Source of the DNA: Fimicolochytrium jonesii
Lineage: Eukaryota
DNA length: 64,000 bases
Direction of reading: 5' to 3'
NCBI RefSeq assembly: GCF_025526975.1
Contig: NW_026515680.1
Span: 620,001 to 684,000, forward strand
The notes under the pieces: generated by a model
What the model saw: the letters and a program-made list of their open reading frames with translations, nothing else
Database searches by the model: none
What the model was told of the DNA's origin: nothing
Translations under genes and position numbers: made by a program
In this document: positions 9,938 to 42,100 of the stretch, piece by piece
Numbering within the stretch: position 1 is the first letter of the stretch
Layout: each line of letters starts with the position of its first letter

Positions 9938-10265
9938 GCTCCGAGATAGGCCCCGAGGTAGCGATGTGAACGAAGGTTTCAGGTCTACTACGTATCCAAG
10001 TGAGTGTGCGGTCCTCCACAGTCAAGTCACGCAAAGCCCAGAGTCCCCACCAGATTATCCCACGAGGGACTGACTGTTGGGGGTGACGCGTCTCTCCAAC
10101 AGCCTTCTCCCACTGCACCACAAGGTGGTCGGTCGGCCACAGCGCAGAAGGACGTATCACAGAATTGTATCGTGTGCAGCACCGAAGGACGTGGGTCTTC
10201 CACTAGACTTCCCCGTTTCCCATGTGGAAGTGAAATTCCGAAGGCAAAGCCAAATCCCGAGGAGA

Positions 10266-10583: not shown

Positions 10584-11276
10584 AGCGGCCTACGAACATT
10601 GTCTGAGGACACCGAACGACTGCATGTCCCGTCAAGGGGTCCAGCTCTCATCATGGAAGAAGAATTTGGAGCAGTCAGCCCATCAACGTAGGAGGGCTCA
10701 GTGAATCCGCGGGCCCGATGCCGCTCGCTCCTAGAAAGGTAGCAAAGTGAAGGGTCCATGGAAGCATGAGAGCACATCTTGCAAGCAGGAACACGGGTAT
10801 ATTATCCAGGGCTGGCTCGATCGGCTGCTGAGATTACGACCGCATATAAATACCTTATAGAACCTCCATTTTTGTCAGGACGTTAGATGGAAGGATGTGG
10901 ATTTGTTTGCGGAAGGCCGGGGTGTCATAGATTGTATAGAATTCAAAATTATATGTAAAGGTTACAAGTTCATCAACACAGCCCCTCCTGCGGGACCGTT
11001 TCCCATCCCCGAAAAGTCTAATCAATTGAGCCGCCGGGCTGAATCTAAAGATATATGGAACGAAAGCCCAATTTAGTAGGTGCGGTGCTATTCGCCACGG
11101 AACGGCGAAACAGTGGGAAAACAGAGGATTAAGCAAAGAGGATTAAGCAAAGAGAAGTCAACTCACAGTCGCAGGTATCTTCCTGCTCTCCTACCGGTCT
11201 CGACCATCACTGCCGCCGGTGGGAGAGCAGGAAGAGGCAGTAGTGGAAGTCTGTTGGCAACAACGGCCACTAAAGC

Positions 11277-12124
11277 ATGGAACAAAATGACATCGTGATA
11301 AGTGATTCCTCAAGGAAGGGTGGGACGCTTTTGAGCCTCGAGGTATATACAGTACGTCGGTCAAGAAGGAGAGCCAACATTGCCCCCATCTACCATGAAC
11401 GACAGCGTCTTGCTCTCTGCGGTTTGCACGCCTTGAACAACGCGCTACAGGGCCAGTATTTCACCCAAACCACCATGACGGCTTTTGCTCAGGAATTGGA
11501 CGCGGCGGAGGCGTCCCTTACAGGCACTGTTCCTGCCGATCCCAGCCACAACTGGGCTGCTCAGGGAGATTTTTCCGTGCAAGTCTTGGACCGTGCGGTG
11601 AGGTCTCTTGGCTTGCAGATGAACCGCTGGCAGCATCAGAGTGGGACGGACCCTGTCCACGACTCGGGTGCGATAGTAGTACATTCAAGGGCCCATTGGA
11701 TGGCATTCAGGAGGATCAATGGGTCGTGGTTCAATCTCGATTCCCTGCTACCGCAGCCAGTTAGTATGACTAATGGCGATTTGGTAAGTGGAATGATGCC
11801 GTTCCCTCCCGTTGGACAGGCTCCTCATCTCCTTCTCTGTTCCAGAGCGCATACCTTGCTCAACTGGTTGCTCCACCCGCCACTTACAACATATACACTA
11901 TCAGCGCGGGTACCGTGGCCTTACCTCCTTCACCCGCTGACAATGTTGCTGTTGCTGGTCCGATTGCCGCGGGTCCGAGTACCGCAGGTCCCAGTACTGC
12001 TGGTCCGAGTACGGCTGGTCCGAGTGGTGCCGGCAGAGGATCTCGCGGCGCCGTTAGAGCTAGAGGATCTCGCGGGGCTGGTCGAGGAGCTCGCGGCGCA
12101 AGAGGATCGCGCGGTGCTGGTTGA
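11277..12124 (+). CDS. Josephin-domain (MJD family) deubiquitinase with AGPST repeats and RG-rich tail; intron 11784-11845
   Basis: Motifs IYHERQRLALCGLHALNN, GDFSVQVL, HWMAFRRI and WFNLDS give a Cys-His-Asp triad. After the intron the frame reads LSAYLAQL...YNIYTI...LPPSPAD, like the end of the ataxin-3 Josephin domain. The start codon is uncertain. Confidence 0.85.
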
Positions 12125-12560
12125 GGAGCTTGCCCGTATTACATGTACAGCAACACAACACAACACGACATAGGCGCGGCGCGAAAGTGTACGCTGTTGG
12201 TTTGCCGCCTTTCCCCTGGCCTGATTGGCTTAGGAACGTCGCCGTGGCGGCTTTGACTTCGACACTGGTGGCTTTGACTTCGACACTGTCATGGTGATTT
12301 GCCTGGGGAATGGAGTGTACGTGAGTTAGTTGGGGGCAAAGTACGGTAGGTAGGTCGTCACGGGGGCATGGGAGCGGGTTTTCGAGGTAGAATGGCAAAC
12401 GAATCGCGAGACTGCCTCTATTGGCTGCCTCAAGCGATCGCGAGTTGATAGCGCTGTGGACGAGTGTCGCTGCATCTAATTCTCACCATGGTGTTGCGGA
12501 CCGTCCCGTTCCTTCCAAGTAGATGCGCGGCGTGGAGGTATGCCCGAGGTTACCTGAGCG

Positions 12561-12700
<140 letters not shown>

Positions 12701-13001
12701 GGGATCGGGGGCGAGAATGGCGCTCCCATTGTACCTTGAAGAGGACGGTTATGATTGCAGCGGCATGTCGACACCGGCTCGCCTGCTTTTCGTTCGAAAG
12801 GACCCTGAAGAAAAAGTCCACTTTGGAAAGTCACGCCTGCATCTCCTGCATGGTACGTACCCCGCAGTCTGCCCCGCAATGCAAAGCTGGAGGGACTGTA
12901 CCAAACAACCCTCTAACCTCTAACTGACCTATACCTTACTTTATCAGCCAACTACTATACCCCCCGGCGTCAACCTACAAAGCCGCTGCCCATGCCTGCC
13001 G

Positions 13002-14864
13002 ATGTTCACCTTCGCTGTATGGTGCCGCCGTACAGCCAGATGCTTCTCGATCGCTCCCGCCCGTGACATTACGGTCAGTCCACTCGAACATTATCTCCAA
13101 CCACATTCCATAACTCCAACTTCGATACCCGGCTCTCTGCCAGCAACGATACCCCGCGAACCCGGCCTATATACTCTATTGCTCTTGCAAGCCCATACCG
13201 CGTACCTCAGCAAGGCAATGTCGTTCTTCAGTAAACGAACGCACACGAGGAGCAACCCCGACGTGAGGCTCCTCTCGATCGTAACGGGAATCTACGCGGA
13301 TAACAACGGGCCGGACGAAGCGGTCCGGTTTTTGGAAACTTTCAGCGGCAGAAGCGGCACGCGGCCCGACACACACTGCTACAACCAGATCTTAGCCCAC
13401 TGCGCGCGGACAAAGAACGTAGCAGCATTCCATGGAGTGGTGCAGCGCATGCATCACGCCGGCATGAACCCGAATGTATTCACGTACCTACACACGATGC
13501 AGATTTATGTCGAGACCGGGGACGGCGCGAAAGCAATGGAGGTGTGGGATCAAGCGAGGCGGATGGGATTGACGCCGCGGCGGCAGATGGACCGGTTGCT
13601 TGTGTCGGCGTACTTCTTGGAAGGGGATGTGAAGGGCGCAAGGAGGGTGTTGCGGGAGGCTGCCCCATCTCAGCGGATGTACACGGTGGTGATACAGGGG
13701 CTTTTGCGCTCTGGACTGGATGAGGAGGCGTTCGAGGTCTATGATCAGATGATCGAACACGGATTCGAGCCCAACGCGGTCACGTACACGATGCTGATGG
13801 ATATCTACGCCAAACGCGGCGATGAGGACATGGTCACAAAGTACTTTGACGAGATGGTCACCAGCGGACACCAGCCCGACGCCCATACCTACGGCGTGCT
13901 GATATGGACGGCGTTAAGGGTGCAGAGGTCGTATGATGTCGTTCTCCAACATCTCCGCGCGATGCATGCAGCCGACATTCCCCTCAACAAAGTCATCATG
14001 GCCACCATCATCGACGGCCTCTGCAGGCTGGGAATGACCGACGAAGCCCATACCCTCCTCCACGCAATGGACCCCCACCTCAAATCCCCCTTGGCAACCA
14101 CATCCTACATCCACGCAACCCTCAAATCCTACCACCTCACACCTACCGAAATCCGCCACCTCATTTCCACCCTCCCGGACACACCCACAACCCTACAAAT
14201 GGACGTCGTAACCTATACAGTCCTCATCACCGCCCACACCCGAACCCGTCAACACCTCCCCTTTGCAACCGTCCTCCTCAACGAAATGCTCGCACGGAAC
14301 ATTCAGCCGGACGCAGCAATATTCAACGCCCTCATCGCCGCCCACGCACGGCACGGCACCACCGAATCCACCCTCGCCGTGCTTACGCAGATGGAAGAAT
14401 ACGCCGTCCGACCCACCGTGGAGACGTTCACGACCCTCGTGTGGATGTACAACCGCAACGCCTGGTCTACACCCACCGATCTCACCAACCTCGACACGGC
14501 ACTCACCAACATCCGCACCTGCCTAACCTCCCACTCCCCGCGCGTCTCACCCGACCTCCGCCTCTTCACGACCCTCGCCCGCGCCTACGCCCGCCGCAAA
14601 GACGGCCCCACCCTCCGGCGGCTCATCGGTGAGATGACACATCTGGGGATAGAGGCGGATGAGGGGATGTGGAGGTTGTTGCTTGTGGCGTGTGAGGGGG
14701 ATGAGGGGGCTGTGGGGAGTGTGGCGCGGGAGATGGTGGGGAGGGGGGTGAGGATTGGGGAAGGGGGCTTGCGAGTGTTGGGGAAGTGGGGGATGAGGGT
14801 TAGGATGGTTGAGGGGGTTGTGAGGGTGGTGGGGAGGGATGGGGGGGTTGTGGGGGGTGGTTGA
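13002..14864 (+). CDS. Pentatricopeptide repeat (PPR) protein, probably mitochondrial
   Basis: Repeated 35-aa motifs (PDTHCYNQIL, PNVFTYLHTM, PNAVTYTMLM, PDAHTYGVLI, PDAAIFNALI). The Arg-rich N-terminus resembles a presequence. Confidence 0.92.
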   Translation: MFTFAVWCRRTARCFSIAPARDITVSPLEHYLQPHSITPTSIPGSLPATIPREPGLYTLLLLQAHTAYLSKAMSFFSKRTHTRSNPDVRLLSIVTGIYADNNGPDEAVRFLETFSGRSGTRPDTHCYNQILAHCARTKNVAAFHGVVQRMHHAGMNPNVFTYLHTMQIYVETGDGAKAMEVWDQARRMGLTPRRQMDRLLVSAYFLEGDVKGARRVLREAAPSQRMYTVVIQGLLRSGLDEEAFEVYDQMIEHGFEPNAVTYTMLMDIYAKRGDEDMVTKYFDEMVTSGHQPDAHTYGVLIWTALRVQRSYDVVLQHLRAMHAADIPLNKVIMATIIDGLCRLGMTDEAHTLLHAMDPHLKSPLATTSYIHATLKSYHLTPTEIRHLISTLPDTPTTLQMDVVTYTVLITAHTRTRQHLPFATVLLNEMLARNIQPDAAIFNALIAAHARHGTTESTLAVLTQMEEYAVRPTVETFTTLVWMYNRNAWSTPTDLTNLDTALTNIRTCLTSHSPRVSPDLRLFTTLARAYARRKDGPTLRRLIGEMTHLGIEADEGMWRLLLVACEGDEGAVGSVAREMVGRGVRIGEGGLRVLGKWGMRVRMVEGVVRVVGRDGGVVGGG

Positions 14865-18621: not shown

Positions 18622-18757
18622 CCCGTGCCAAAGGTCTCGTATCATACTCGACCCGGTACTTCCCGCGCTGCGTGAAGCCGGGCACTCTCTTCCAGTGGCG
18701 CGACTGGAAGAGAGTGGCGCGACTGCGGGCGAGTATGATACGAGACCTTGGCACGAG
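18622..18757. mobile_element. 136-bp MITE with ~29-bp terminal inverted repeats and TA target-site duplication (Tc1/mariner-type)
   Basis: The left end CCCGTGCCAAAGGTCTCGTATCATACTCG is the near-perfect reverse complement of the right end CGAGTATGATACGAGACCTTGGCACGAG. TA lies at 18620-21 and 18758-59. There is an internal hairpin CACTCTCTTCCAGT/ACTGGAAGAGAGTG. Confidence 0.88.
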
Positions 18758-22597: not shown

Positions 22598-24779
22598 TCA
22601 ACTTACCGGAAAGCCAACACCCGCAAAAAACGCCGCCCGGGCATCGAGCACGGCGGCGGCTGGTGCAGCCGCACCTGCGTACTGTTGCCGGGGCTGCTGG
22701 TGAGGAGGGGTGGTGGTGTCGGTGGTGGTGGGGATGGTGGTGTGGGGGTGTGCGGGGGTGGAAAGAGGAGGAGCGATCGCTGGCGCCCATCCCCCTTCTG
22801 GATGAGGAGGAGGAGGGTCCGGCGGCGGAGGAGGCGGCGGAGGAGGAGGACGACGAGGACGAGGAGGCGGAGGGACCGGCGGCGGCGGAGGAGGACGACT
22901 ACGACAATGAGGGACCGGCGGCGGCTTTGAGGTTTGCATTTGGGCCGTCATTGCCGCGAGGCGTCGCTCAAGCTTGCGCGCCCTCTCCGCAGCGCGTAGG
23001 ACCTGGCGCTTGCTCAGCTCCCTTTTCGCGACGCGCCCGTCGCGATTGGCGGCTTGGGAGTCCGTGGGCAAGCCGGCATCCGAGTACCTTGGCCCCGCGT
23101 ACGACTTTGACCGCCGGTCTTTCTTGGCCACGGTGGGTGAGTGTGCGGTGAGTGGGCGGAGGTTTGGGTGGAGAGGGTTGGGTGGATGGTGGGGGTGTAC
23201 CCACCGAGTCTCCAACCATACGCTGGTGTGTACCCACCCCAAAACGAGCCCAGCCGTTCCCCACGAAAGCAACCAAACGTTCACAATCTGCCACTTCAGC
23301 TCCCCTCTCCACAGCGCCTGTGGCAAGGCCAGCAGCTGAACATCCACCTTCTTCCCCGCCTCCAATGACGCCGAAAGCAGGCGGACCATGGTGAGAAACC
23401 CGACGGATCCCCACATGGACTCCCCGATGGGGACGTATAGACGCATAAGCGTGTACACCATGGCTGCAAGGTGAACAGATCCTTGCCATTCCACAAAACG
23501 CAATGCGTGGAAAGGATTTATCCGCCAGCCCCAACCCCACATATGACCCATCTGACGCTGAAGAAAGAGGTTGGTGGTGAATTTTCAGAGCCGTCAGAGG
23601 TACTACGAAAACTGAGGAACAACATACCAGCGCTCCCCTCACACCTCCCGCTTTCGCACCCCCCCCCCCCCCCCCCCACCACCCCCACCAATCGTCTCCC
23701 AACCGACTTTCCAGCCAAACCGAAAAGTCCGCGCATCCCAAAATGCATCGAGTATGTGTTTTCCTTCCCTTTCCCGACTTTGATAGTCCCCAGCGCCATC
23801 CGTCCCTCTTCGATCTCCTATTCGCTGTCATTATTGATTTGGTGATGTCTTCCTGTGGTGAGGAATGTGAATGAGACCTTCTGACCGGCCGATATGAATA
23901 GTGCGGGGGGTTGAGAAGCGGGTGCGCGTGACGAGACGGCGCAAGTCGGCGGGGTCGGGGCCGCTGGATGAGGAGGCGTGGGTGGGCAGTTGTGACGAGA
24001 GTATGGAGGCGATCTCCGTTGGGGGGCGGCAGACGCCCCAGTGCCTTGGCCGCGAATCCTTGCGTGTCAAAGTCGGGCGTCGCGGTGCGCTTCACCTCCT
24101 CCGCGTTCGACTCGATTAGTGCGTTTTCCATCTCGGCGTCAATGTCGATGGCAGAGACACCAGCTCCGACACCGACATCCATGTATCCGGCCTTGCTGGC
24201 ACCAGCAATGTTTCCACAGCTCGCGAGACCGCTGGAGCATTGCTTGTTGACCGCGGAGAGGGCAACAGATTCTGGGTCTCCGGCATCGAGCGCACCCATA
24301 CGCGACGTGGTCACAGCGGCTCCGACACCGACATCGATGTATCCGGCCGTGATGGCACCAGAAATGTTTCCGAGACCGCTGGAGCATTGCGTGCTGAGCG
24401 CGGAGAGGGCATCAGATTCTGGGTATCTGGCGTGGAGCGTACCCATAGGCGACGTGGCTAAACCGTTCTTTGGCTTCGCCGGTGTTAGGTTGTCGTGTCC
24501 GTAGTTGTACTGCCCTTCGTTGACGCTCTCGCTGATCTTCTCATCGTTGCAATTGCCGTCGAATGGAGCCGTGGCGTGCTTGCAAGGGGGGAGGCTGTGG
24601 TGGTGCGGGGCGGGGAGTTGCTGTGGATGATGTTGGGACGGGTGGTGTCGATGCTGTTGCCTCTTCGACTCCTTCATGAAGGCCGCGAACATCGATGCTG
24701 TTGCCTCTTTGACTCCTTCATGAAGGCGGCGAACAAGAGGAACCGTTCGGTATCTTCTTTGAAGCTGATGGCAAGCCAC
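22598..24779 (-). CDS. Hypothetical low-complexity/membrane protein region (gene model unresolved)
   Basis: Overlapping long ORFs (603 and 317 aa) with hydrophobic segments near 23230-23510, poly-Pro stretches, and an AT-rich tract at 22250-22310 that could be a 3' end. Confidence 0.3.
24161..24432. repeat. Internal ~120-bp duplication, in frame in the minus ORF
   Basis: Copies at about 24161-24283 and 24317-24432 encode ES.ALSA...QCSSGL..GNI.GA..AGY.DVGVGA twice. Confidence 0.85.
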
Positions 24780-26419
24780 TGTGAATCTGTCGGAGTAGGA
24801 GGGATAGCTTTTCTCGACCTATTGGTATCGTGCCGCATATCCGGGAATGCGGCGGCAGCTACGTGTGGAGATGTCGGTTCGTATGCGGCGCGCGAGATCA
24901 GGCATCATCGTTTCGTGCGACACTTCAGATAGATACGGCGGTCTATGTTGGTTTGGCGGCATGTACATCATCGCTTGTGGATGCTGGTGTGGTGCGGGCA
25001 TTGAGTACTGTGGTGTAGGATCTGGCATGCCGGGGGTCCGGGATCACAGCAACCATATGAACCGTTTCCTGATGTGCTATATGATCTTGGTAATTGTATG
25101 CAGGAGGGGCCATTCCTCGAGGTATTTCGGACGCGAAATTTGCCACTGGACCCAGCGGAGCAGGATGCACAAATTCCTTTGGCCGGTCAGGTTGAATATC
25201 GTGTCATGGCAACGGATGTTGGTGGTGATGCTGTTGATGCTGGTGCTGATGCTGGGGATCGTGGAGACTGATATGCTGTGATGGGTTCGGATGCAGTGTT
25301 AGTCCTAGGGACGCTAGTGTCGCACTCAGAGGCGTCAGCTCGGGGATGACGGCCAGGGTATCGTGGGATGAGAGCGTGGTAGGGTGGCCGGCGAGGTTTG
25401 CGGCGAAGTTTCCGTCATCGCCGTCGTTGTCCGTCTCGGCGTACTCAAAGTTGGGTGGCATCTTGTATGATGCAGAGGAACTGAGATGAAGCGAATGCAC
25501 GAAGCTCGGAGGTATGGAATGAGTCTGGAAGCTAGTGTTAGGTGTCGAAGTACTAAGATCGTACAGCGAGCGTACGGTAGAGCTCACCCTAGCCCTAGCC
25601 CAAAGCGACCCGCATCACCCGGTAGAAGACCTTGCTTGCTCATCGGTCCTTGGTAAACCTGGACTGCACTTAAGAAACATATGATGAACTCAGATGAACT
25701 CGGGAGTTGTGTTCGATGAGCTTGCTTGATCACTCTTAACGAGTACATATTCAGCTTAGACCATGTCCAGCACTGTGTTGAGAGCGTTCACATCCTGTTC
25801 GGTCTAAGGCTACGTCATGTATATCGCTGATACGCCCTCGTCCAGGCTATATCAGGGATGGAAGCCGGTATGAGTAGGGGTCGAAAGTCACAACGAGAGA
25901 ACGTCAAAGAAAGATGTACCTGCGGATCAAGACGAAAAAGGTTGAACACAGCTTCCGTCTTCATCTGCAACTCCATGAGATTTGTTTCCAGAGTGCGCTG
26001 GGTTTCCTGCTGTTCTGAAAGATCCGTCGTATGCTGCTGGCCTGAGACTTCTTCACCCTGTTCCAGAGCTACGATACAAGACCTGGTATTGGCGAGATCC
26101 ACCGTTTGCCGGCTGAGCGTGGATTGCTGATCAAGCAGTTTGGACCTAAGACCCAGATGGGTGAAGTTAGAAAGCAGAGTCACATCACGCAGGCGGAGGT
26201 GGTGCGTGATGTGGCTCTGCTCCTTAACTTCGCCGATCTGGATCTTGTTGCTAGCTATGCCATTCTCGAGGGTTTGAACAGTTTCTTCGAGATGTTGCGC
26301 CCGTACACCGTTTGTACCATGTACCGTCCGTGTCCTTGGATCTGGAAGAAGAATCCAGTAAGAAAATGGAAGGACGATGATGACAACGAACCGACGATGG
26401 TGAGACTAACAGTCAGTTT

Positions 26420-27298
26420 TCGAAACGCATCCAGCAATTGCGAGTGCCACGTGAATCTCATCCTGGTAAAACTCATCCAGGGCGGGATCTGGGATATGGA
26501 TGTCAGCCCATGTATTACGAAAGTTGAAGACGATGCATGATACATCATACCTGCATGTTCGTAATCCACAATGAAAGGGGACGGGGACGGGGACAGGGTT
26601 GAGGAGGGCGTTGATGGGGATGGCGGGGGCGGGGACAGCGGGGACAGCGGCGACAGCGGGGACAGCGGGGACAGCAGGGCAGTAGTAATCCACTGAAACG
26701 TACCGAAATGACCGCTCCTTCTTGATGTCTCGACAGAACCAGAGGTCACGCTTGTTTAGATCAATGCTGACGATGTTTGGAGCATCCCTTAGTTGACCGA
26801 ACAGATGACTGGATTCGAGATTTGCGCAGCGGGATAGCCGAAAACAGCCGCATTCCACGGCGCTCATAGAGGCGTGAGAGCTCACAATAGGCACCTGTGA
26901 CGAGGCAGGTGCGGACCATGATTAGACAAAAGAGGAAGCCGCGGGGGGGGGGGGGGGGGTAAATATACAGGACATAACTCACCTAAATATGGCATTGCGT
27001 CCACCGCAAGGCTGTACGCAAGCGGTTCATCCTGCGGAGGAAACAGAGCCCATAACTCGTCGAGGACGGTCCGCTCAAGTCGTGTGAGGCGCGCAAACTC
27101 TTCTTCGGTTGGAAACTCTTCAAACGTCGCATACTTTGCAAATTGACGGACACGCTGATAATACTGTCGCCGCTGCCCTCGGTTGGCTCTGGCTCTACGG
27201 AGATGCAGTTCGACTTGCTTCAAACCAATCCTGTCGTTGACGTCCCTGTCCGTCACGGCGGCTAGCTGCGCGCCCCAGTTAACCGAATCCACGGTCAT
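26420..27298 (-). pseudogene. Decayed Fanzor (eukaryotic TnpB-like RNA-guided nuclease) fragment with spliceosomal introns
   Basis: Across intron 26895-26982 the frame reads LFPPQDEPLAYSLAVDAMPYL-GAYCELSRLYERRGMRLFSAIPLRKSRI, resembling the Fanzor1 Y...P..YL...E..G...F...PLR.S.IP motif. After a frameshift or deletion comes NIVSIDLNKRDLWFCRD...SFRY (RuvC-I-like), then LDEFY. No RuvC-II or RuvC-III was seen. Confidence 0.6.
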
Positions 27299-28342
27299 AT
27301 GGTTTTCAAGACGTCGCAGTGGCTCGTCGTCGGAGTGTAGGCCCGGCCGTTTGGAGCTAAAGCCTTAGCTTCAGGAGAGCTACAGTATTTTCACCCGACT
27401 CGGTGCGCTGGCGTTTGCAGCTAGGGCCTTGATGATGAGGTGGCCTGTCTTCCGTTGCCGCGGTGTTCTTTCCAGCTTCCTTAGACTTCCATAACCTTGT
27501 AGTTGGGCTGGCCCTGAATGAAAGCCCACCACAACGTCAGAGGGGTTCGACGATGCAGCAGCCATCCCTCAGCCATCCCTCAAGTTGGAAAAAGGCAACG
27601 GTTGAAGCAGGGTCTCCTTCAATAGTAGCGAACGACCCCTAACCCCAACCCTTCCCCTCGTCATGTGGCGATTGACGTACTGGAACGCTGGAAACCCACT
27701 GGGCGATATCCTTTGATTTGCGGACCTGCTGAGCGTACATACCAGCTCGATGTCCCCCAGGACACATCGTCAATGTCAGGATCGTACTGTAAGCTCGAAT
27801 CTCGTCGTGCGTTGGAGGCGTTGGAACCGCGTCCGCGCCTGCCCCGCTTGCTGCGGCAGACTCGTCATTTCCGACAGGTTGGAGCGGGCTCCCTCGGGTG
27901 GTTGAATCTCCAGATGCGGATGGCCTCATTGGGACTTCATGACGACCATTGTTGTTGCCACCCGTTAGAGCAGACGGTGAGGGCACTGAGGGATAATCAA
28001 CAGGTCGAGGTCGCGGCAGGCACCTTGACGGGTCGCTAAGGAATTTGTAGTAGTGCCGGAGTCTGTGGTGTCGCTTGCAGCAGGTGACTCACGGGCTATT
28101 CCACAACGGGGCGGAATGAGCGCGTGCGCTGTTCCACTCTTCCACTCCGGGAACATTCCGTCCCACCTGCAGGTTCACAGTCCGCACTGTTGCCCGCTGG
28201 GCCAGAGACGATGACGGTGCACAAGTAGGACCAGTGCCTAGACTGGTACTTAACCAGGTGCCAGACGCCAGTGGATCCACCTCCTCCAGTCCACCCCCCT
28301 ATTCCGCAGCTGGTGCCCGTCCCCCACCCACTTTGAAGCAAC

Positions 28343-31300
28343 ATGACCATTACAGACACTCGTCCAACTGTTCCCGCCGCTGGCAACCGCAACCCTCTCG
28401 GCGCCGGCGGTCTCTTCTCGCTGCTTACCGTATCGTGGCTCAGCCCACTCGTTAACCTCGGCTTTGAGCGTCCTCTCGAGCTGGAAGATGTCCCGCCGCT
28501 CGGTCGAGGTCTGCAGGCCGGCCCTCTCGCTTCGAAATTGGACGTCTACTGGGACGAGTTGGCCCGTTCTCAGGGTAGCAGCAGCAGAGGCACACACAAA
28601 CCGCCGAGCTTGTTGTGGCATATTGCCAAGGTTGCGGGAGGTGCATGGATGCTGTCAGGTGTCGGCGTCACTCTCGCCGTGGCTTGTGAGCTAGCAAGTG
28701 CTGTCATTCTGCAGCAGCTTGTTATGGTCCTTGCTCCCCACGGCTCGGACACGTTCGTGTGGATCGACTCGGCTGCGACTCTCGCCGTGACCCTGTTCTT
28801 GCTGCAACTGGTGCGCTCAGCGGCACGCTCGCTGAAGTCTTCCTTTGATATAGTGGTTCGACTGAACTGCCAGTCTCTGCTGACGGTACGCCATTATTGA
28901 ATCATTCGATGAGACATTCCGATCAGTTTCCTAACATCCGTCATCTCCACAGGGCGTTATCTACGAAAAAGCCCTCCGATTACACTGCTCCGAAACGCAA
29001 GAGTACTCCGAGGGCCGCGTCATGAACATGATCAGCGCGGATGTGAAGGACATCTTTGCCTCGGCTTCCGATCTGCATCTCGTCTGGCTCACTCCGGCTC
29101 AACTTGTGGCGACGCTGATCTTGCTGAATCGCTTGATTGGATGGTCTATGTGGGTCGGTATTGGATGCATGTTGGTCCTCATGACCATCTTGATGGCGTT
29201 CGCTCCGGTTTACGAAAGATTTTGTGAACTCTTTCTCGAGCATGAAGATACCCGCCTCAATAAGATCCGCGAAATGCTTTTGGGTAAGAGCGTGGGCAAC
29301 GGGGTCCTCACCAGAGAGTCGCTGGCCGTACAGGCCAACTCATGGCTTCCCGTCCGCTTACAGGTATCCGCATGGTGAAACTCCGCGCCATGGAATCAAT
29401 CTTCGCCAATGAAATCAACAGCATGCGTGACAAACAAATCGACGCCCTAAAAAGCAAAGTCGGCGTCAACACCTTCGCTTGGACATTAACAGCGCTCATC
29501 ACAATCATCATGCCAGTCACGTCATTTCTAGCGTTCGCTTCTCGATCGGATGGGACGTTCTCCGCAAGCATCATCTTCCCCGCGCTGGCGCTCTTCAGCG
29601 CCCTCGCTGAGCCGTTGAACTTTTACCCGGGGATGTTGACGGATGTTTGGAAACTGCGGGTGTCGTGGGCCCGTGTCGCTGGGTTTTTGCGTGCGCGTGA
29701 GGTTGATCCTGTTCGCAAATCGGTGGACAGCGAGAATCCGTATGATGTTGAGGTCGTCAATGGTACATTCACTTGGGCGGCGGCGGCAGCGGATTCCGGA
29801 GAACCATCCGAAACGGATCCGTTGCTATCATCTGAAGCCCGTCCTGCTCCCATCTTGAAGGGCGTCGACGTCTCCATACCCTCTGGAGCACTGATGATGG
29901 TTGTTGGAGCAGTCGGCTCAGGAAAATCGTCGTTCCTCTCTGCGTTGCTGGGCCATATGGTTCAGATATCTGGCGAGGTGAGCTCGCAAACTGGTTTTTT
30001 GGGCGCGCCCACTCGTACCAACGCTTACATAGGATGTTACATCTTACAGACAAAGATGAACGGCTCGACCGCTTACGCGCCTCAACAGCCGTGGATTACT
30101 ACAGGGACAATCAAAGACAACATCGTTTTCAACGCAGCCATCAACGACGCAAAGCTCAAACAAGTCATCGAGGCTTGCTGTCTGGAGAGTGATTTAGGGC
30201 AGATGCGAGCCGGATTGGAGACCAGTATTGGAGAATTGGGCGTGAATCTGTCAGGCGGGCAGAAGGCCAGGGTGGCTTTGGCTAGGGCTGGGTATGCGGA
30301 TGCTGGTATGAGTCGTGGTTTCCCGAAAAAGTTTCAGTGTGGCTGCCCTACTGATCTGAACCTCCAACAGATATCATACTCCTGGATGATCCGCTCGGCT
30401 CGCTCGACCCGGTCGTCAGTCGGGACGTTTTTGCGAAATGCATCCAAGGGGTACTTGCTGGCAAAACTCGAATCCTCGTTACCCACCAGCTCCATCTCCT
30501 CCAACATGCGGATCATATTATTGTCTTGAAGGAGAACAGTATTGCGGAGCAGGGCACGTACACGGACCTCATGGCAGCAAACGGCACTCTTTCCGCCCTT
30601 GTGAAAGATCATCAAGTGGACGACGCCGCACCAGCTTCTTGCGCACCCGAGATCTTCAACGCTGAAGACGTCCCGGAAGCTTCCGCGGAAGGAGACGACG
30701 ACTTCCAAAAAACCGAATCCCGAATCCGTGGCCGCATCAGCAAAGCCCATCTAATGGCGTACATCCGGTCCATCGGCGGCTGGAAGATGGTCAGCGTGAT
30801 TCTGATGTCGGTGTCTGTGAAACAGGCGGCGTCTGTTATGGCTGCTGTTTGGCTCGCGTGGTGGTCTGAGAAGCATTTTGCGGATTTCACACAGGGTGAT
30901 TATTTTGAGGTTTATGGAGGGTTGGCGGCTGGGCAAGCTGTTTCTATCAGTACGTATCAGTTTCGGCTTCTGTTTCAATCGTTTGCCCGGTTCCGAGGAT
31001 TTATCCCCCTTACTTCCTACAGGTCTCTTCCTCGTCGTGGTCTACTACGCCGGGTTCCGCGGCAGCAAATACTTCCACCCGGCCGCCCTCCAAAACATCC
31101 TCAGGTCGCCCCTCTCCTTCTTCGAACGCGAACCCATCGGCCGTATCATGAACCGCTTCTCGGGCGACCTCGACACTATCGACGATGACCTACCGTCCGA
31201 GCTACACCTCTTCCTCACCAACCTCTTTGACCTCCTCGGCACGTTCGCCATCCTCACCTGGGTATCCTATTGGATCGTCGTCATCGCGGTTCCCATTGTC

Positions 31301-32717
31301 GCGTGCTACTGGCACCTCCAGCGGAGGTATCGCCCCGTCGCGCGTGAAATCCGCCGTATGATGGCCATCCAACGCTCTCCACTCTTCGCCTACATCTCCG
31401 AATCCCTCGCGGGCGTGAACGTGATCCGCGCATTCTGCCGCGAAAAGGATTTCATCGCGACGCAGAGACGGCATTTGGACGCGAGTTTGGAGGTGAATGT
31501 GATTCGTGCGGCGTGTACGGTGTGGTTGGAGTTTCGCTCGGAGTTTCTGGCGTCGTTTGTGACGTTGGGGATGGCGCTTGTCGGGGTGTTGTCGGAGGCG
31601 GCGGCGGGGTTTGTGGCGCTGGCGTTAGTTTATACGGTGGCGTTGAATACTAGTGTGCAGGCGTTCGTCAAGTAGGTATCTCTCATTCCTCCTTTGAAGC
31701 TCTGGTACCGTTCTCACACAGCTTACTCCCATCAGGTCAAGCGTAGATCTCGAAGCAGCCCTCGCGGCCGTCGAACGTCTCTCCGAATACGCCACCGATC
31801 TGATCCCCGAACCACCTGCCAACCTACCCACCGATCCCACATCAACCGAGTGGCCCACCGAGGGCAAGATCGTCGTAACGGACCTCAAAATTGCATACCC
31901 CAGCAATCCCGACGCACCTGTTCTCAAAGGTCTCACCCTCATCATCAACCCAGGCGAGCATATCGCAGTGGTTGGACGTACAGGATCCGGCAAGTCGACA
32001 TTCATGAGCGCCTTGTTCAGGGTCGTTGAATACACCTCTGGTTCAGTGACCATCGACGGCCGCGATGCCAGCACTCTCGGTTTGAATGTCCTACGTTCAA
32101 GTATCCAGATAATACCCCAGGACCCGGTTCTGTTCGAGGGTACCATCCGCTCCAACCTCCTGCTCGGGCATGCAAACTGGACCCATCATGCGTCCATCAC
32201 CGATGCCGACATCTGGTCCGCAATCCGGCGCGTCGGGCTCGGCAAAATGGTCGAAGACCTCCCCGACAAGCTCGACCACGCCGTCGAATCCGGCGGTCGG
32301 AGTCTGTCATTCGGTCAACGGCAGCTGATTTGTCTTGCGCGAGCGTTGCTTGAACGGCCGAAGATCTTGGTGCTGGATGAGGCGACGGCGAGTTTGGATG
32401 CAGAGGCGGATGCGATGGTGCAGGATGTTATTGCAAGGGAGATGAAGGGAGTTACGGTTATTTCTGTTGCGCATCGACGTGAGTTTTCTTTTGTGTTGGC
32501 GAGCCCCATGTCGATGTACTTACTCGCCCCATTTCCCTTTCGTTCAGTGCACACGATCGCAGGCTTCGACCGGGTCCTCGTCCTTGACGATGGTGAAATT
32601 GTCGAATCAGGAACTCCCACGGAATTGCTGAGAAATTCGGAAACTCATTTCAACCGTCTTGCATCCGCCATGGGCATGGCGAACCGTGAGGCGTTGGTGA
32701 GGGCTGCACAGGCGTAA
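28343..32717 (+). CDS. ABCC/MRP-family full-length ABC transporter (Yor1/Ycf1-like), about 8 exons
   Basis: Lasso motif FSLLTVSWLSPLVNLG; NBD1 GAVGSGKSS, LSGGQKARVALARA, LDDP; TMD2 FFEREPIGRIMNRFSGD; NBD2 VGRTGSGKST, LSFGQRQLICLARAL, LDEATASLD. Confidence 0.96.
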
Positions 32718-33056: not shown

Positions 33057-36000
33057 TCAAACGTCCAATTCTTCCTCCGATGCAGGCGCTAGCGCTGCCG
33101 TTTTCAGAGGCGATTCTGCGCGAGACGCCATCGACCGCGCTTTGGATGTTGCACCCCTCCCTCTCGCAAGATCCAGCTTTCTCACCCACTCCTCAAGCGC
33201 CCTCTGGCTTTCCATTTGCACTCGCAGTCGTTCACCGCCCGGCAGTTGCAGCAGCAAACTGTTGTCGGTCGTATCCGCTTCCACGCTAACGCTGTCGATG
33301 ACGTAGAATCGTCCCTCTTTGGTGTCGATGTCGGTGAAGTCGATGTAGTTCTGGACCACTGATATCTGAACAGCTCGCCAGACGAGCGCAGCATCGGGTT
33401 TTACGGGGAGGTATTTGATTTTCTGGTAGATGCTTTGCGATTTTTGAGATTTCTACGGAAGAGTTTGAAGACCGACCAGATGAGATGATTGCTTTTTTGA
33501 TGATGGCATATGTCGACAGAAGCCTATCCATACTCACCAAAGCAATCGCCTTGATTTTCGCTTCCATGGCGTCCTCGATCTCGCCTCCAAGACCGTAGAG
33601 CAGCCAAACCTTGTAACCAAGGAATGATGCGGTCATAGCAGCCGCAACGACAAACGTCACTGCGGTTCGCAGCGCGAATTGCGCGATCCCGTTCATCATG
33701 TTTGGAAGTAGAATGCCGGCGGACAGGATTCCCGTGATGCCCATGTTTGCAGCGTTCACCAGCAGCAGCCTATCTTCGAGTGCAGGAACAGGCCAGCCCA
33801 CTTTGATGGTCTCGTAGGCGAGCTTGCACGCCGTCAGCAGGATTGTCCCCGTGATGATCATCAGGCAAGTTATGAAGCCGATCTGCTTCTTTTCGGTTCC
33901 CCAGCAGATCCAGAAGCGATCTTGCGATGCGTATGTCAGTTGGGGAGTCGGCGCCTCCACGACTCTCCATAGGGCAACCAGAATCTACATCGGAAGGAGA
34001 CATAATGTTATGCGACGTGATGAAAAGATGAGTCCAGCGTCCGCCTGCTGCATTGGATACGTACGACGAAAAGAACTAGTGTTGCGGCAAGTGCACTCGC
34101 TGTTACTTTCTTGAAAGCCATAGAGAAGTCCGTCCCTAAGGCCATCTTATTCTTTCGTCGGGTATAATGTCCCCATGATTTGAGCATAAGACATCTGCGC
34201 GGCAGAATGGGTGAGCAACACCAACGCGGTTTAGCGGTACCTTCGAAATTAAATGCGAACTTACGAGGATGTCAGCCCGAAGGAGCAGGGAAGCATCCAT
34301 ATCTGCACCCGGCATGATAACGCAGTTGGCTCTACGGTGTCGGTGATCGGCAGTGCGAAGAGGCAAATGAGGCCGAGGGCTAGAACCCTGTGAACGATCA
34401 AGATACCTCGGATTAGTCATTGGCTATCCGGCCGGCAGATTCACGAGCAATCGACTCACATATTCAAGTTCCGCGTGGTGCCCTGAATCGCCTGTCCATT
34501 GCGCTTCATGAACAGCAGTCCCGCAAGCGCCAACACCGTCAGCATACAGATACCAGAGATCACGATGACCACCATAGATCCAGCGCTCGTGATTTTGGTG
34601 TTGGCCAATGCACCTTCGAGAACTTGTACACCCATCGTTTCCGGTGACGTTAACGTCTGTTGCAGCTTTGCAGACGCCACCTTCAGCTGCCGGTAGTCGA
34701 GGAATGCTCCACTTTGCGCATCCATTAGAGAGAATTTCATGTACACAGTGTCCGCGCCATCTCGTCGAGCTAGGTTCGCATGCCCAGAGGTCCAAAAATT
34801 GCGATAGATGACATTGTACGTGTTATTGTAGACCTCCTTGATTTTGTTGACCATACGATCGCGTCCGTCCACGGAGTAATCGAAAACGTCGGATGAACCC
34901 GTAAAGATCGGGGTCTGAGAGTCAAAGGAAAAGGTGAGACTGTCGTTCTCGCTTTTTCTCATTTGGCAAGCGATGCCCTCGTAGGCGGTATCGGTGCATG
35001 TGCAGTTCCCGTCCGATACGCACACGCCGGCCGTGGATGAACAACCTAACGAGCATTGGGGAGATCGACATTCAAGTTCGGGGGTGCCTGACGCAGCTAG
35101 CAGTTTGCGAGGCGGATCGCAGCGGGAGATGGTGAGCGACCGGAGTAAAGGGGAGAACTCGGAAATGTCGGTTCCGGAATCGTCGACCAATTTGATCCGG
35201 TAGGTTCCCGGACTCCCGAACACTCGTACATCTACAGATTCGGAAGCTGGTCAACCTCAGATCCGTATGAACGCGCAGAGCAAATCGAACTCACTTTCGA
35301 AGGTCAATTTCCCATTATCGACAACACCCATGGTCGGACCATACAGGGTAGCCACCCTCGAGATTACCTCATCCCCGTCCATATCAACCAACGCGATCTT
35401 CACAACCGCCGCAGTCTCCTGCTCGAACCCAATGAACTGCCCATAGGCGTCATATGTCGATATCCCGAAGATTGGGAGAGTGTCTCCCGGTAAAAGGATC
35501 ACGTCATCCCAGTTCCCAGACGGGACGAACGTAGCGGATGCAGTTCCCCGGTCGGGTAGCAGCGGCGCCGAGTTATCTGCATATGTCACAGAGATGAAAT
35601 CTAAGGATTTGCGGGCTCCGGTGTACCATGCGCCGCCGTACTGGAGCGCCGTGTTTTCGGTGAAGGAGACGTTTTGAACCACGAGGTTCGGCTGGCTGGT
35701 GAAGCGCTCGATGAAGAGGGCGCCGCCGTTGTTTGCAGTGTTGTTTGTGAATGTGCTGAACGGGGAAATGAATGAGTGATGCGAGAGAGCCTTGGGGGAT
35801 CTGGGACCCGTCTGCTTACCTGTTAACAATGGTGATGCTGCACCGTCCAGCGTTGACGTTGCCGTAAATCGCCCCCCCTCGACCTGCGGCTGTGTTAGAA
35901 TTGAACGCGGAGTTTGTGAAGCTTGCCGTGCCGTCGCAGTCACTGAGGATTGCACCGTCGTTTGACGTCCAGTTCTCTACGAAGGCGAGGGTTGAGTAGA

Positions 36001-38551
36001 TCTTCAGCACATAGGCGTCCGGGACGCATCGTGAAACACCCACCGACGAACGTGCACTTATCAACGCTGAAACTGCTGCCTGAGCCCAGCTCTAGGAGCG
36101 ATGCGCCCCTGCAGTGCTGGAACGAGGATGCTTCCAATTGGAGAGTGGATAAGGAACCAGAGAAGATCGTGTTCGCTAGCCCCTCGAAAGTGACCCCTTG
36201 GATCAACGTAGTCGGCCAATCCTGATCGGTTTCTGACCGTTCTAATCTGAATAGCGGTTCGCCGGATGAAAGACCTAGCGAAAACCAAAATTAGCATTTG
36301 CATGGCATTTCAATCATATGGCCTGCGAAAAGTGCGTTACTTACGGGCGAGAATCGTGTCTGTAATCGTCAGATCACCCATCTCGAAAACATGGAAGCAA
36401 TGCGCTGCACATCTTTGATCTTCCGAGAGCATGTCAGTCAGAAAGAGGTTTGCAAAATCCGTATCCCGAATTCACACAAGAACCAACCATCGATCGTCAC
36501 AGAATCCAGAACAGCCTTCGACGTGCCATTCAATTGCAAGATGGCTGTCGTCACGTTGATATGAAGATCAGTTGTGATCTTCGAATTGGTTAAAATGAGC
36601 ACTCCCTTTGACGTTATTGCGAACAAATATGGCATCGCAGGGCTTCCCGGGAGCACCGCCTGGTTATCTACGTAGCATTGCATCAGCGACGGGTCGTCAT
36701 GCAGCCACCCTTCGTCACCGAACTTACTGGTCATTAGCGCGTCGTCGATCGTGAGCGTTCCGAGCACGTTCGTTTGCCCGACATTTCCTACGGACGTGAT
36801 GAACGGAATGCCACCCGAATAGTCGTTCATGCTTGCCAACGTACCAGATGAAACGAAGTTTGATATCTCGACCGTCGCCAAACTTCCAATGAATATCAAG
36901 TCCGTCGGTACGGGTAGGATCGCATCCATGAAGTTTGAATACACCGGTTGAGCGCCAGGGAAGTTTACCGTACTATCTGACATGTTGGGGGCATGAGATG
37001 AGCGCTGGTTTCCACTAGCGAGAAGCAATCAGTTTAGAGAAGGCTCCTACCGACGATGGATAAGCCATTGATGATATTCGTGCCGCGCCTTATGTCTAGC
37101 ACACGCCCGCTCCAGCCTAATTGTACGATGATCAGCACCAGGGAAACAGCAGACGGATCAGTTCCATCGTCGTTTGAGTACCTTTGATTGTCACCGCTGA
37201 CAAGGATCCCCCTTCCGATGACTGCATGCTCAGCACAGAACTGCACCAATGCTTGGGGTTCGACAAATCGTTCTTTTCGATGTGCACATTGGTCAGGGTT
37301 GTCTGACCGGATCCGGCTGTTTGCTGACGGTGGGACGTAGATTAGATACACAAGATGCGTAGGATGACTTCCGGAAGAACGATCCACTCACAGTGATCAC
37401 CGAAGCACCCTCCAGACATAGGCTAAGAGTCGGCAGGCAGGGTCAGCTCAACATTTCGGTCGCCGCGGTCCGTGAATCGACAGCAAACGTGGCCTTACGG
37501 ATCTAAATGGCCAGTTAAACCGGGTTGGGGAAGAGAGACCCTAAAACCCTATCACATGATATACAACTCACTTATGATGACAATATTTGTCAAATCGGTG
37601 GATACGGTTCCGGATCGCGCTTGAAAGATGGAGGGGCCTAGGATAGGTTAGGACTTGCGAATCCAATGCTGCCTAATGTGAGGTGCATCGGCTTGGGCGT
37701 ACCTTTAAAGTATAGATCGCTAATGAATACCATAGCGTTCGGGAGGGTTGGGTAGTAAAAGACGCCTGCGAGGTGCATGCATTTCAAGTTAGATCAACCC
37801 GGCAGATTCATCCGTAGGTTGGCACCTAGCTTACCTTGCAAAACTTTGCAGCCAGTGTACGTGACGGTATCTGACAAATACACGAACCAGTCCAAATACA
37901 CGAACCAGTCCAGTTCGAGTTTAAGGGACAGAACATCGACCATGCTGTCGAAGTCGGGTTGGGGGCCCCCTGCGTCGTGTATTTAGAATTTTTGAATTAT
38001 AGGAATCGTAAGATGGCTTCCACTTCCATGTCATGCTGTGATATACCAGCGAAAGTGACATTGTCAAACGTCAGAGACACCTCCAACTCGGGGTTGCTGA
38101 ACATAAATAAGAAGGTGGAGGGATCGGAGGATTGCTCAGGCAGCCCGAAAACGACGTTCGAGAATGCAATGGAAGGATCGTCGCCAATGATCGACATTTG
38201 AACCACGGAACCCTCTACCAAAGGGCCGCGCACGATCTTCGGCCCGCCGAGCACATTCCAAGACTCTTCCGTTCCTTGAATCGCCAAATTGACGGACAAA
38301 CCATACTCGGCTTGATTCAAAGGATAGTCTCCGGGGGAGATGAGGTGAATTCGTTTGTGGCCTCCATTGGGGCCGAGCAGAGCTTGATTTATGGCATCGT
38401 CCAGCGTCCCCCAAGGGTTTGATTGCGTTCCATTCCCGCGAGACTCAGGTGCATTGCGGTCCACGTAGATGTCGATGTCGCCTCGAACTACAGGTAGAAG
38501 CGACACGCACAGAAGCGCAACCAACGTAACACACAAACTTCTGCGTTGCAT
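33057..38551 (-). CDS. Divergent class C GPCR-like receptor: signal peptide, right-handed beta-helix ectodomain, EGF-like, SEA-like stalk, 7TM, PH-like tail (many exons)
   Basis: Signal peptide MQRRSLCVTLVALLCVSLL; YVD...GNGTQSNPWGTLDDAI; F..NTA..GGA(I/L/W)(Y/F) repeats; EGF-like CSLGCSSTAGVCVSDGNCTC. The spliced TM2-TM4 read VLALGLICLFALP...SCRVQIWMLP...LMLKSWGHY, and TM5-7 lie in ORF 33286-33960. The tail ends ...ESQRALEEWVRKL. Confidence 0.8.
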
Positions 38552-38962
38552 GTCGAGGTGTCTAGAAAACTCAGTAAGGCGGCTAGTTTGAGGTTTGTAC
38601 TTGTATGTCCAAGACGGCATCCAGGGTTTGCTCCCTTGCAATCGGCAGACGGATTATGGGAGGGAAAGGTACAGGGCAGGGAGCTTATCTTCCTGGACTT
38701 CTGTTTTCAACATAGTTCAAAGCTCCGACAATGCCTTGCGTCGGCCATTGTTTCGATGACTTGAAAGCATCGACAGAAATCGACAGCGCGTTTGTGGAAT
38801 GTTCCATGTCTCCCAAATGGGAACCGTAAACGAATTACAGAACGGCTTACTTGAATGTACTCCGTCCTCCCCAGCAGAGCTCGCTCGGCCCGCATAGTTC
38901 TCGATGACCGCGTCTAAAAGGCAAATGGGAAATATGTTAAGCGTACGACTGCAGAGGCACCA

Positions 38963-39061
38963 GGATTCGTTTTGGACTGCCTTTTTACTTACCCCGGATT
39001 CGTTTTGGACTGCCTTTTTACTTACCCCGAATTGTTTGGGACTGCCTTTTTACTTACCCCC
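38963..39061. repeat. 33-bp tandem repeat x3 in the shared promoter region
   Basis: GGATTCGTTTTGGACTGCCTTTTTACTTACCCC twice, plus a diverged third copy. Confidence 0.92.
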
Positions 39062-39104
39062 TGACAATTCCACCTCCATCTGCCAGACAAAGCGACACTT
39101 TACA

Positions 39105-42100
39105 ATGTACAACGGCACTACAGCGCTGAGTGTGCTTTGCGTTCTATACCTGCTTGCATGCCCGGTTCTTGGTGAGTGCATATTGGATGTGCCGGCGATC
39201 CGGGTTGACACTAATCGACGTCCCAATGGCATCCGCAGGGATTGACGTGAACCTTCTGGTGGATGGGACCCTGTCGGCGGATGCGCCGCCCTCGTTTATG
39301 AGCATCGGAAACGGTAAGAGTCGGCCCCGCCACCGCATAAGAGTTGAGACTACCTGTCATTGACATTTGCATCCTGACAGCTTGGGAGTACGCAATAGCT
39401 CAGGCGAAAGCGCAACAACCAACAAATCCGACCATCACATTAACCTTCCGTCCGGGCTCCTACCAGATCCCACTAAACAGTACATCAGCCGAGAGACAGT
39501 TTGGAAATTGCACGCTCAGACATGTGGCCGAAACGCCGGGAACCGTGAGTCTGATTGCGCCGTTCCGCCAAGCGCGCCAGGACGCTATATCGACGATCAC
39601 CAGCCTGAGCGAATCGAAGTGGGGCAAAAACACTACGTTGGAGTTCACTGGCCTCACGGTATCCGTCCCGGATACGAAGCTCTTTGCGTTCAAGCTTGAA
39701 GGCCTTAATGCCCGTTTGAACATCACAGACTGTACCTTCATTGGTAACGTAGACGCTGGAACGCAATTTCATGCGAACGTCAACTTCTGCAATAATTGCG
39801 GCGCTTACATTCGAGATCGAACACTCTGCAGGAGGCGGGAACTACTCGCGAGCCTATTTTCGTGTTGGATCACCAGACATCGCTCGTCAGGCTAGTCTGA
39901 TTGTGACTCGATCCGTCTTCCGGAGTAAGTCACGCGATACAGGTTCCCCTCCAATTTCGAGATCGATCATCACTGACTAATGAGGAATCAGACATTCAGC
40001 AGGACATCGCAGTATACGGTTATACAAGCGTTACTGTGAAGGGAGGCGGGACCGACACCGGCTACAGATGGTTTAATACGCTTTTCAGGGCGGAGGCTGG
40101 AAACGTAACCATTGAAGATTGGACAGTCACCGGAAATGGCGACTCGGCGGCACCCCTAGTGTCTGTTCTGCAACACAATCAGACGCCAGGAAGGAGGGAG
40201 GCAGCTTTCTGGTATTCTGGATTAATTATGAGGAATGTGCTCATCAAAGGAACGAATTTCGGAGGGCCCGCCTTTCGGTTTGAAGCAGGCTACATTCGTC
40301 TGTTCAATGTAACTATCAGCGATTGTACCACGTTCGGCGGGATTGTCGGCACCACCCGCCTCTTGCAAAGATCCCTCATGCGGATTTATGCTGACACGAA
40401 GGTCACCATTGACGGAATGCGTGTCACAAGTAAGAAGGGAGGAGAGGTTCCAAATAAGTTCATTCTGAAAAAGACTCTCTCTCTGCCAGACACTAGCTTG
40501 GAGACCGGGGTCGACTTTTGGCAATCAATGATATCGATGGCCATGACGAATTCATACTTTGGAGGTAGTTTTGCGGCATCGCCGGGACATCAGTGGGCGC
40601 GATCTAGACACCCGCACTTCGATCTTACAGGGAATACGTTCCAAAGATGCTTCGACACCACGGAGAACACCCGGATCAACCTGACCGGGGTCACGTTTGG
40701 TGAGCGGCGATTGTCCCTATTGCTCGTCTATTGCGCATGACATTAATCCCTTCCAATCCCGTCTCTCCCATGTGGCAGAACGAAACAACTGCAACTTCAT
40801 GCTAATGTCCAACACGACCACACACATCGAGAATTCAGCGTTTATAGGTGCGCGACCGATAAGAGTCCCGGTGCATAGCCTCGTCATCCTGCGTCTGACT
40901 CTCAGGAATGAATTGTACAGACAACACATACGCAACCGGATCGCCCTTCTTTGATATATCGGCATCGGAATTCGTCGCCACGAACAGCACTTTCACCGGT
41001 GCGTAATACGGTCCTGCTTCCCTGTTCCTTGATCACCAAGCACATGCTCAACAGATTTGTATCATCCCAGGCAACCAAATCGGACGTAACTCCATGTTTT
41101 CTGTCAAGGAGCGCTCTTCACTGATACTCGCCGGGTCCGATATCGCCAACACCTACGCATTTCGGAGCGTGCTGTCCACAGACGCCTCGAGTGCTGTCGA
41201 GATCAAGTCCACGATCTTTCGTCGAAATGTCGCAGACCTCCGCGATTTGGTGAGCCTCAACTATGCTGGGAACATCAATGTCTCGGACAGCTCCTTCCTC
41301 GGTGAGTATCCCGGCCTCTCATTCCAGCCGTTGTGATCCTTAGGCTGATGGCTTCTGCTACCCCAGGAAACAAGGCACTGAGTGGAAACCTGATCAGAGT
41401 AGCAGCCGGTACAGGCCTAACGCTCAAGCGCTCCACATTTACCGCCAACGCCGGCTCCATCTCCATCGACGCTAGCGGCACCTTACGAATCCGAGATAGC
41501 ACATTGGAGAGCAACGGCCCGGCCCCGATCCTCTATTCCGAAGGCAGTCTAACCATCTCCGGCTCTACATTAACGAACAACTCGAGTCCCAACGGCGGAG
41601 CGATTTTGCATGTGCCCAAGAAGCAGAACGAGTACCTGATGGTTGATAGCACGGCTTTCGTCTCGAATGCGGCGGACGGCGATGGCGGGGCAATATATGT
41701 TGACGCGAGTGATTTTGATCCGTTGGTGTATAGCAATGTCACGTTTACGAACAACACGGCGAAGAGAGGAGGAGCAGTGTTCCAGTTGCAGAGCCAGTGG
41801 GCTAATGTCGGGTTCAACACGTCCGCGGGTTTGCGGATGACGAATAATGTCGCTGCGTGGCAAGGTACTTCCGTGCGACCCACGTGGAAGTTCTCGGGGA
41901 CATGAATCGAGGTCAAGATTGACGTCGAGACGCACGGATTTGGAACTTACGCTTTGCTCATCTCCCACGCAGGGAACGATCTGGCAACAGGAATCGCGTC
42001 CCTCGTTGTGGTCAACAAAACATCCTTCTCAAGCTTATCAGGCGCCTACCTGGACGACATCACTGTACGCGCTTTAGACGGTGAGTGTCTTCCGACCCAT

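Follow-up and report, generated by a model that had tools for sequence, protein, structure and literature searches.

The closest described relative of the element analyzed here is SpuFz1, the Fanzor1 protein of SPu-1 from Spizellomyces punctatus (PDB 8GKH, 9CEU-9CEZ; Bao and Jurka 2013, PMC3627910; Xu 2024, PMC11423790), which belongs to the same clade as the proteins of the chytrid Fimicolochytrium jonesii and is about 43% identical to them over the fold. As in F. jonesii, SPu-1 is present in its genome in numerous copies, both full and partial, with 42 loci reported, 19 of them full length (Saito 2023, PMC10432273). SpuFz1 is encoded by a single open frame of 1,917 nt for 638 aa (PMC10432273; PMC3627910), whereas the F. 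jonesii family is intron-bearing. Fanzors with introns and with truncated or internally deleted copies as such have already been published (PMC10530073; PMC3627910). The Fanzor1 genes of Chlamydomonas (CRe-1/2/3, CrFNuc) are likewise multi-exon and are accompanied by many truncated and internally deleted copies (PMC3627910; PMC10530073), but they are algal, Helitron-associated and of another subfamily, and their copies keep the 3' end that is lost at our locus.

The F. jonesii family has been listed before. Table S2 of Yoon 2023 (PMC10711439) contains 33 F. jonesii rows of the same family, five of which are the proteins that we number P0016, P0018, P0019, P0020 and P0022. These 33 rows are raw HMM hits, all of them C-terminal fragments no longer than 410 aa, and the curated Table S3 lists none of them. 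Three further accessions, the longest intact-looking ones for which we searched, were absent from the tables of that study, and its main text does not name F. jonesii. The species name was also absent from the readable files of Saito 2023 (PMC10432273) and from the files of Jiang 2023 (PMC10530073), the latter being a weak blank since Spizellomyces is absent from these files too. Among the listed titles of the Fimicolochytrium literature, none was a Fanzor paper.

We analyzed a stretch of 64,000 nt, hereafter the window. The locus described here is very probably a dead, intron-containing Fanzor1 fragment, whose intact family members are likely to be omegaRNA-guided nucleases, as predicted from their relatives, of an SPu-1-like DNA transposon. 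The relic has two complete introns and two internal deletions and has lost both ends and two of the three catalytic residues; compared with SPu-1, the element ends and the omegaRNA are missing.

Homology and anatomy of the relic

Three open frames on the minus strand were queried one by one against 177,635 PDB sequences, and SpuFz1 (8gkh_P) was ranked first for each of them, with E 2.2e-5 for the frame at 26882-27364, E 3e-6 for 26761-26982 and E 0.61 for 26406-26921. The matches are collinear on SpuFz1 at residues ~158-248, 242-276 and 373-404 (numbered after subtracting the 394-residue tag of the PDB chain), with ~96 residues absent between the second and the third match, which spans the catalytic D383. 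Our own profile of 19 relatives, which was built without the window sequence, recognized the frames with E 7.8e-30, 9.7e-15 and 3.7e-13; as controls, the best other frame of the window reached E 1.3, and E 2.4 was obtained for the reversed window. No Pfam model matched the relic pieces or the full-length F. jonesii members at E<0.01, a Cas12f1-like TNB model giving a weak match at E 0.076, and the F. jonesii members bear a precomputed PF26935 label. The relic is a Fanzor1 of the SpuFz1 clade: its pieces are homologous in sequence to the REC, WED and RuvC regions, and a full-length member is homologous in both sequence and fold. The Fanzor identity proposed in the first-pass annotation thereby holds, although the profile search that it had suggested was empty in Pfam and succeeded only with the PDB sequences and our own profile. 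At 60.9-61.3 kb, tblastn gave a weak match (E 0.025) that obtained no support in the search with our own profile.

Table 1. Parts of the Fanzor1 relic and the neighbouring hairpin, in window coordinates
Feature	Position	Strand	Description
Exon A, Fanzor1 REC region	26983..27247	-	P0023 266-354; SpuFz1 ~158-245
Complete spliceosomal intron, 88 nt	26895..26982	-	Phase 1 in G354 codon; GTGAGT donor, CTAAT branch motif, CAG acceptor
Exon B, around the FSAIPLR motif	26797..26894	-	P0023 354-386; E 3e-6 to SpuFz1
Deletion junction 1	26793..26797	-	~99 codons gone (P0023 387-485, most of WED), frameshift
RuvC-I exon piece	26704..26795	-	P0023 486-516
Second intron, 5' remnant (inferred)	26576..26703	-	GTACGT donor at 26703, 9-nt tandem repeat; poorly aligned stretch
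Short exon remnant	26551..26575	-	P0023 565-573
Complete intron, 62 nt	26489..26550	-	Phase 1 in D573 codon; GTATGA / CTGAC / CAG
Last exon piece, PALDEFY	26445..26488	-	P0023 573-586
Imperfect 44-bp hairpin, 11-nt loop	26148..26246		200 nt beyond the 3' break of the relic

In the spliced alignment, which follows the residue numbering of P0023, homology extends from 27247 to 26445 on the minus strand and covers ~174 of the 761 codons of the Fanzor1 gene in four exon pieces (Table 1). Exon A is identical to P0001 and P0025 at 78 of 87 residues, and since homology begins right after CAG, an intron acceptor instead of a break could form its 5' edge. The GT..CTRAY..YAG pattern of the 88-nt intron occurred in 5 of 20,000 random 88-mers, and peptides read through from the ends of this intron are seen again in P0007, P0008 and P0010. 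Exon B agrees with P0002, P0006 and P0023 at 32 of 32 residues, and P0007 reads the same residues as the relic across junction 1. The codon of the catalytic Asp (SpuFz1 D383) lies at 26762-26760 within the RuvC-I piece. We take the poorly aligned stretch behind this piece for the 5' portion of an intron because it starts with GTACGT and shares a 12-residue read-through with the mis-spliced model P0013, and because the P0006 and P0011 models resume at Y517. Deletion junction 2 would then have removed the acceptor of this intron together with ~48 codons (P0023 517-564). Read-through of the 62-nt intron is found in P0004, P0006 and two F. jonesii rows of Table S2 in Yoon 2023, and the last exon piece is identical at 14 of 14 residues to 10 of the 28 family models. 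Altogether, the relic contains two complete introns and one further donor, both complete introns having a CTRAY branch motif and a CAG acceptor.

Much of what the first-pass annotation had read from the letters agrees with this anatomy. The 88-nt intron that it proposed has a donor, a branch motif and an acceptor, its removal gives the noted reading, and P0002 is the same across the junction; the shifted-frame RuvC-I piece with the catalytic Asp codon does follow, from ~26795, and the spliced alignment bears out an internal deletion. In other respects the picture has changed. Between FR and PALDEF an intron is indeed present, but instead of the single one assumed there are two plus a second deletion, and the Y of 'FRY', which had been taken as coding, probably represents the first letters of the GTACGT donor, judging from the mis-spliced models P0006, P0011 and P0013. 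The assigned extent of 26420-27298 was too wide, and the copy, rightly described as internally deleted, is more broken than claimed, with two internal deletions and a loss of both ends.

No piece corresponding to P0023 residues 1-265 or 587-761 was detected anywhere in the 64-kb window by tblastn or by our own profile. The relic is devoid of a start, both ends, RuvC-II, RuvC-III and the zinc finger; of the RuvC D-E-D triad only the first Asp is left, and the frame ends in a stop 12 codons past junction 1. Judged from its sequence, the relic is unable to make a nuclease, since the start is lacking, the frame is shifted at junction 1, and E541, D606 and the zinc finger are gone. Most likely, it has no function at all.

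Several other features of the window were recorded. A full-size, intron-bearing ABC transporter gene with two membrane and two ATPase domains, which we take to be MRP-like, lies at ~28343-32717 (+), 1.1 kb from the relic and divergent from it. The 616-codon frame at 22968-24818 (-) carries a 154-nt tandem duplication (24157-24457) with a sub-threshold Thiolase_N match (E 1.7e-5) on the repeated part. A 205-nt element at 60136-60340 with 26-nt, 92% inverted ends, presumably Tc1/mariner-like, is a possible MITE. The regions 6218-14864, 34456-44638 and 54438-55736 contain F-box, Josephin and PPR genes; beta-helix/PMP-repeat and 7tm_3-like frames; and an ankyrin-repeat frame whose DNA includes tandem repeats.

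The family and its introns

Exon A as query retrieved 14 clusters at 58-90% identity, every one of them from F. jonesii, and the cluster members together with those added by a second search form a family of 28 F. jonesii gene models on many contigs. The occurrence is multi-copy, repeat-like and eukaryotic, and the neighbours of the relic in the window are intron-bearing eukaryotic genes. Exon A of the window reaches 90% identity at best, the pairwise range within the family is 78-95% (21 pairs), and the next species, Gaertneriomyces, matches exon A at 34 of 87 residues. RuvC-I, II and III plus the zinc finger are kept in 10 of the 28 models, and the CCCC zinc finger (TNB/NUC), which is absent from the window copy, in 12. 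Two models additionally retain the N-terminal WED strand, P0023 (KAI8821362.1, 761 aa) and P0024 (KAI8822135.1, 693 aa), both of which are automatic gene models. With these two whole-looking members, an intact intron-bearing family of the kind anticipated in the first-pass annotation has been found, and the identity within the family suggests that they belong to the same genome as the relic. The window would accordingly stem from F. jonesii or a very close relative; a sister species, in which intact copies would not have to occur, is an improbable source, given an identity inside the F. jonesii range and the distance to Gaertneriomyces. In P0036, a tyrosine-recombinase-like N-terminus (PF00589, E 5.6e-4, below the cut-off) is joined to a Fanzor fragment, by nested insertion or association.

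P0023 aligns to SpuFz1 over residues 129-759 (E 4.6e-149), with D497, E656 and D731 at the positions of D383, E541 and D606, and it also keeps the CCCC zinc finger as well as Q129, Q130, R291 and Y345 of SpuFz1. In the predicted structure of P0023 (mean pLDDT 72), SpuFz1 structures are the best match (E 9e-51, TM 0.82 on the target), followed by PpFz1 and GtFz1. In contrast to SpuFz1, the F. jonesii proteins have a predicted disordered N-terminal extension of 130 residues with a basic PRRKRRK stretch, residues 1-131 of the P0023 model having a pLDDT below 50, and N385 is replaced by Gly in most F. jonesii copies.

Outside the species, HDU85_005947 of Gaertneriomyces sp. JEL0708 (P0027, 53%) is the sister of the F. 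jonesii family with support of 100/100, and the Spizellomyces proteins are grouped with the soil-metagenome loci L001 and L005 with 89/93, in a tree of 20 rows that omits the majority of the F. jonesii copies, leaves the deeper forks open, includes no clade test and in which the outgroup branches are long. The soil-metagenome relatives L001-L006 are all members of the clade. None of five pattern matches on viral contigs was confirmed, and among prokaryote genomes 1 of 20 pattern matches was (L009). This SpuFz1-clade Fanzor (P0037) comes from a Bacteroidota MAG, in which its contig of 3.3 kb is probably eukaryotic contamination, and forms one unbroken frame over 152-593.

The introns at G354 and D573 are family-wide, as read-through of them occurs in P0004, P0006, P0007, P0008 and P0010. 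Additional putative introns near residues 175, 201, 473 and 639 are hinted at by mis-spliced models; in total, the family has at least two introns seen directly and about five more that are putative. Several of the automatic family models are wrong at splice junctions, two of which are fixed by the DNA of the window. Of eight metagenome loci, four distinct ones were mapped (L001, L003, L004 and L005); L002, with 99.9% identity to L001, was not counted separately, the partial loci L007 and L008 stayed outside the mapping, and L006 was kept out of the intron counts owing to an ambiguous spliced alignment. The four mapped loci are intron-bearing at positions unlike those of F. jonesii: all of them share a phase-1 intron at G273, an intron at G698 occurs in two loci and one at I649 in a single locus, while none has the G354, R516 or D573 introns and the window copy is without the G273 intron. 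After removal of the introns, three of the four mapped loci were free of stops, and L003 contained one. Compared at the level of sequence, these positions suggest that the G273 intron is older and was lost in SpuFz1 and in F. jonesii, that separate gains took place in F. jonesii, and that intron positions turn over within this transposon clade.

The downstream hairpin and the origin of the relic

The hairpin downstream of the relic is the most stable of 2,556 100-base windows, has a z of -5.8 and is the longest inverted repeat of the whole stretch with arms under 3 kb apart. It lies on the side where an omegaRNA would be expected, and S. punctatus has protein-less ghost elements with working omegaRNAs, according to Saito 2023 (PMC10432273). 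The 3' part of the relic might accordingly have been lost by a third internal deletion rather than by truncation, with the hairpin as right end or omegaRNA of a ghost-like guide donor, but we regard this as unlikely. The seven departures from perfect pairing comprise three G-U pairs on one strand, three on the other and one on neither, and thus indicate no strand preference; the hairpin has no Rfam match and, by eye, is unlike the 75-nt scaffold of SpuFz1. The SpuFz1 end motif has 5 matches in the window versus 5.65 expected and none near the relic, the post-stop segments of L001 and L004 have no match above shuffles in 24.5-28.3 kb, and an inverted partner upstream of exon A is absent from the 25 longest repeats. 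The hairpin is probably a decayed DNA palindrome and not a guide RNA, and no omegaRNA is recognizable at the window copy, whose 3' end is missing.

The frames spanning the hairpin were also considered as host genes and rejected: the plus frame had no homologue among longer proteins, the minus frame had 0 matches among 1.84 billion, and the best score was 0.78, a low recognition. Just beyond the hairpin, an inverted-repeat pair is located at 25691-25967 (24 nt, 83%), and further pairs are at 18631-18749 (23 nt, 96%) and 10528-10663 (24 nt, 83%). A pair of ~30-nt TIRs with a TA target duplication, as expected of an SPu-1-like element, was found neither around the relic nor around L001, L002 or L004. 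A weak structured segment is common to L001 and L004 (score 59; 500 shuffles, mean 28.5, maximum 61.5). These candidate omegaRNAs, L001:4919-5060 and L004:2785-2930, are foldable, weakly conserved and located past the stop codon, and they start near TTCC and end with ACTA like the SpuFz1 scaffold.

By analogy with SpuFz1, intact copies of the SPu-1-like transposon would be spliced and take up a guide RNA whose coding sequence lies directly behind the stop codon; they would cut DNA beside a TAM, which would help to retain the element in the genome, and a putative transposase elsewhere would move the element. On the simplest view, the relic would descend from a derivative in which a deletion had already taken place and which was copied in that state before it eroded further here. 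Copying after the deletion is suggested by junction 1, which is common to the relic and P0007, a copy at another locus with different flanks that still has exons lost in the relic and shares the same junction residues and a DLNK variant. P0039 has DLNK without the deletion, and P0008 has neither. Simple descent from the P0007 lineage is weakened by exon A, in which P0007 reaches only 69 of 87 residues compared with 78 of 87 for P0001 and P0025 and has a 5-residue gap that is absent from the relic. The copies may therefore be mosaic, or the small deletion may be recurrent.

The retained pieces contain zero stop codons and have an identity within the family range, a pattern more in line with rapid deletion than with gradual decay. 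Our preferred source of the deletions, by a modest margin of belief, is abortive gap repair with template switching, a process familiar from DNA transposons in general. It is unlikely that the patchwork is in part an assembly artefact within a repeat family; junctions of multi-copy repeats are places where mis-assembly is possible, but junction 1 recurs at a second locus with different flanks and the window has no N. Deleted products of the P element act as repressors or decoys, and by this analogy the fragment could have been kept for a truncated REC-domain product with such an effect on the family. The open exons A and B with their in-frame splice and the recurrence of junction 1 at a second locus would suit such a role, which is nevertheless highly improbable: the first 265 codons are gone together with promoter and start, a stop follows 12 codons beyond junction 1, and none among the longer database matches is marked as the window's own protein.

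Target motif and implications

SpuFz1 reads the TAM CATA via R96, Q129, N133, Q130, R291 and Y345, as given in Saito 2023 (PMC10432273). N133, in contrast to the four residues retained in P0023, is replaced by Ala in eight of eight aligned F. jonesii models, and the loop of R96 is five residues shorter and without Arg, although this shortening may be an artefact of gene prediction at a putative intron. From these residues, the TAM of the F. jonesii proteins is predicted to be changed or relaxed relative to CATA.

The relic itself is ordinary dead scrap of a family that was listed before and not characterized. Modestly new are the intron positions, which are unlike those of the relatives, and the exchange of N133 for Ala at a TAM-reading residue. 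The lead that emerges is the pair of full-length proteins, P0023 and P0024, which are absent from the Fanzor tables searched and near enough to SpuFz1 to reuse its structure and engineering, with a difference in a TAM residue. This closeness combined with the changed residue makes them cheap candidates for wider Fanzor targeting. Tentatively, and somewhat against the odds, F. jonesii may harbour a recently mobile Fanzor of the SpuFz1 clade that gained up to seven introns of its own, lost an older one, still spreads together with deleted derivatives and uses a non-CATA TAM. If this is true, the family would provide the best-engineered Fanzor with a natural, uncharacterized TAM variant, and it would be a dated case of intron turnover within a mobile DNA element.
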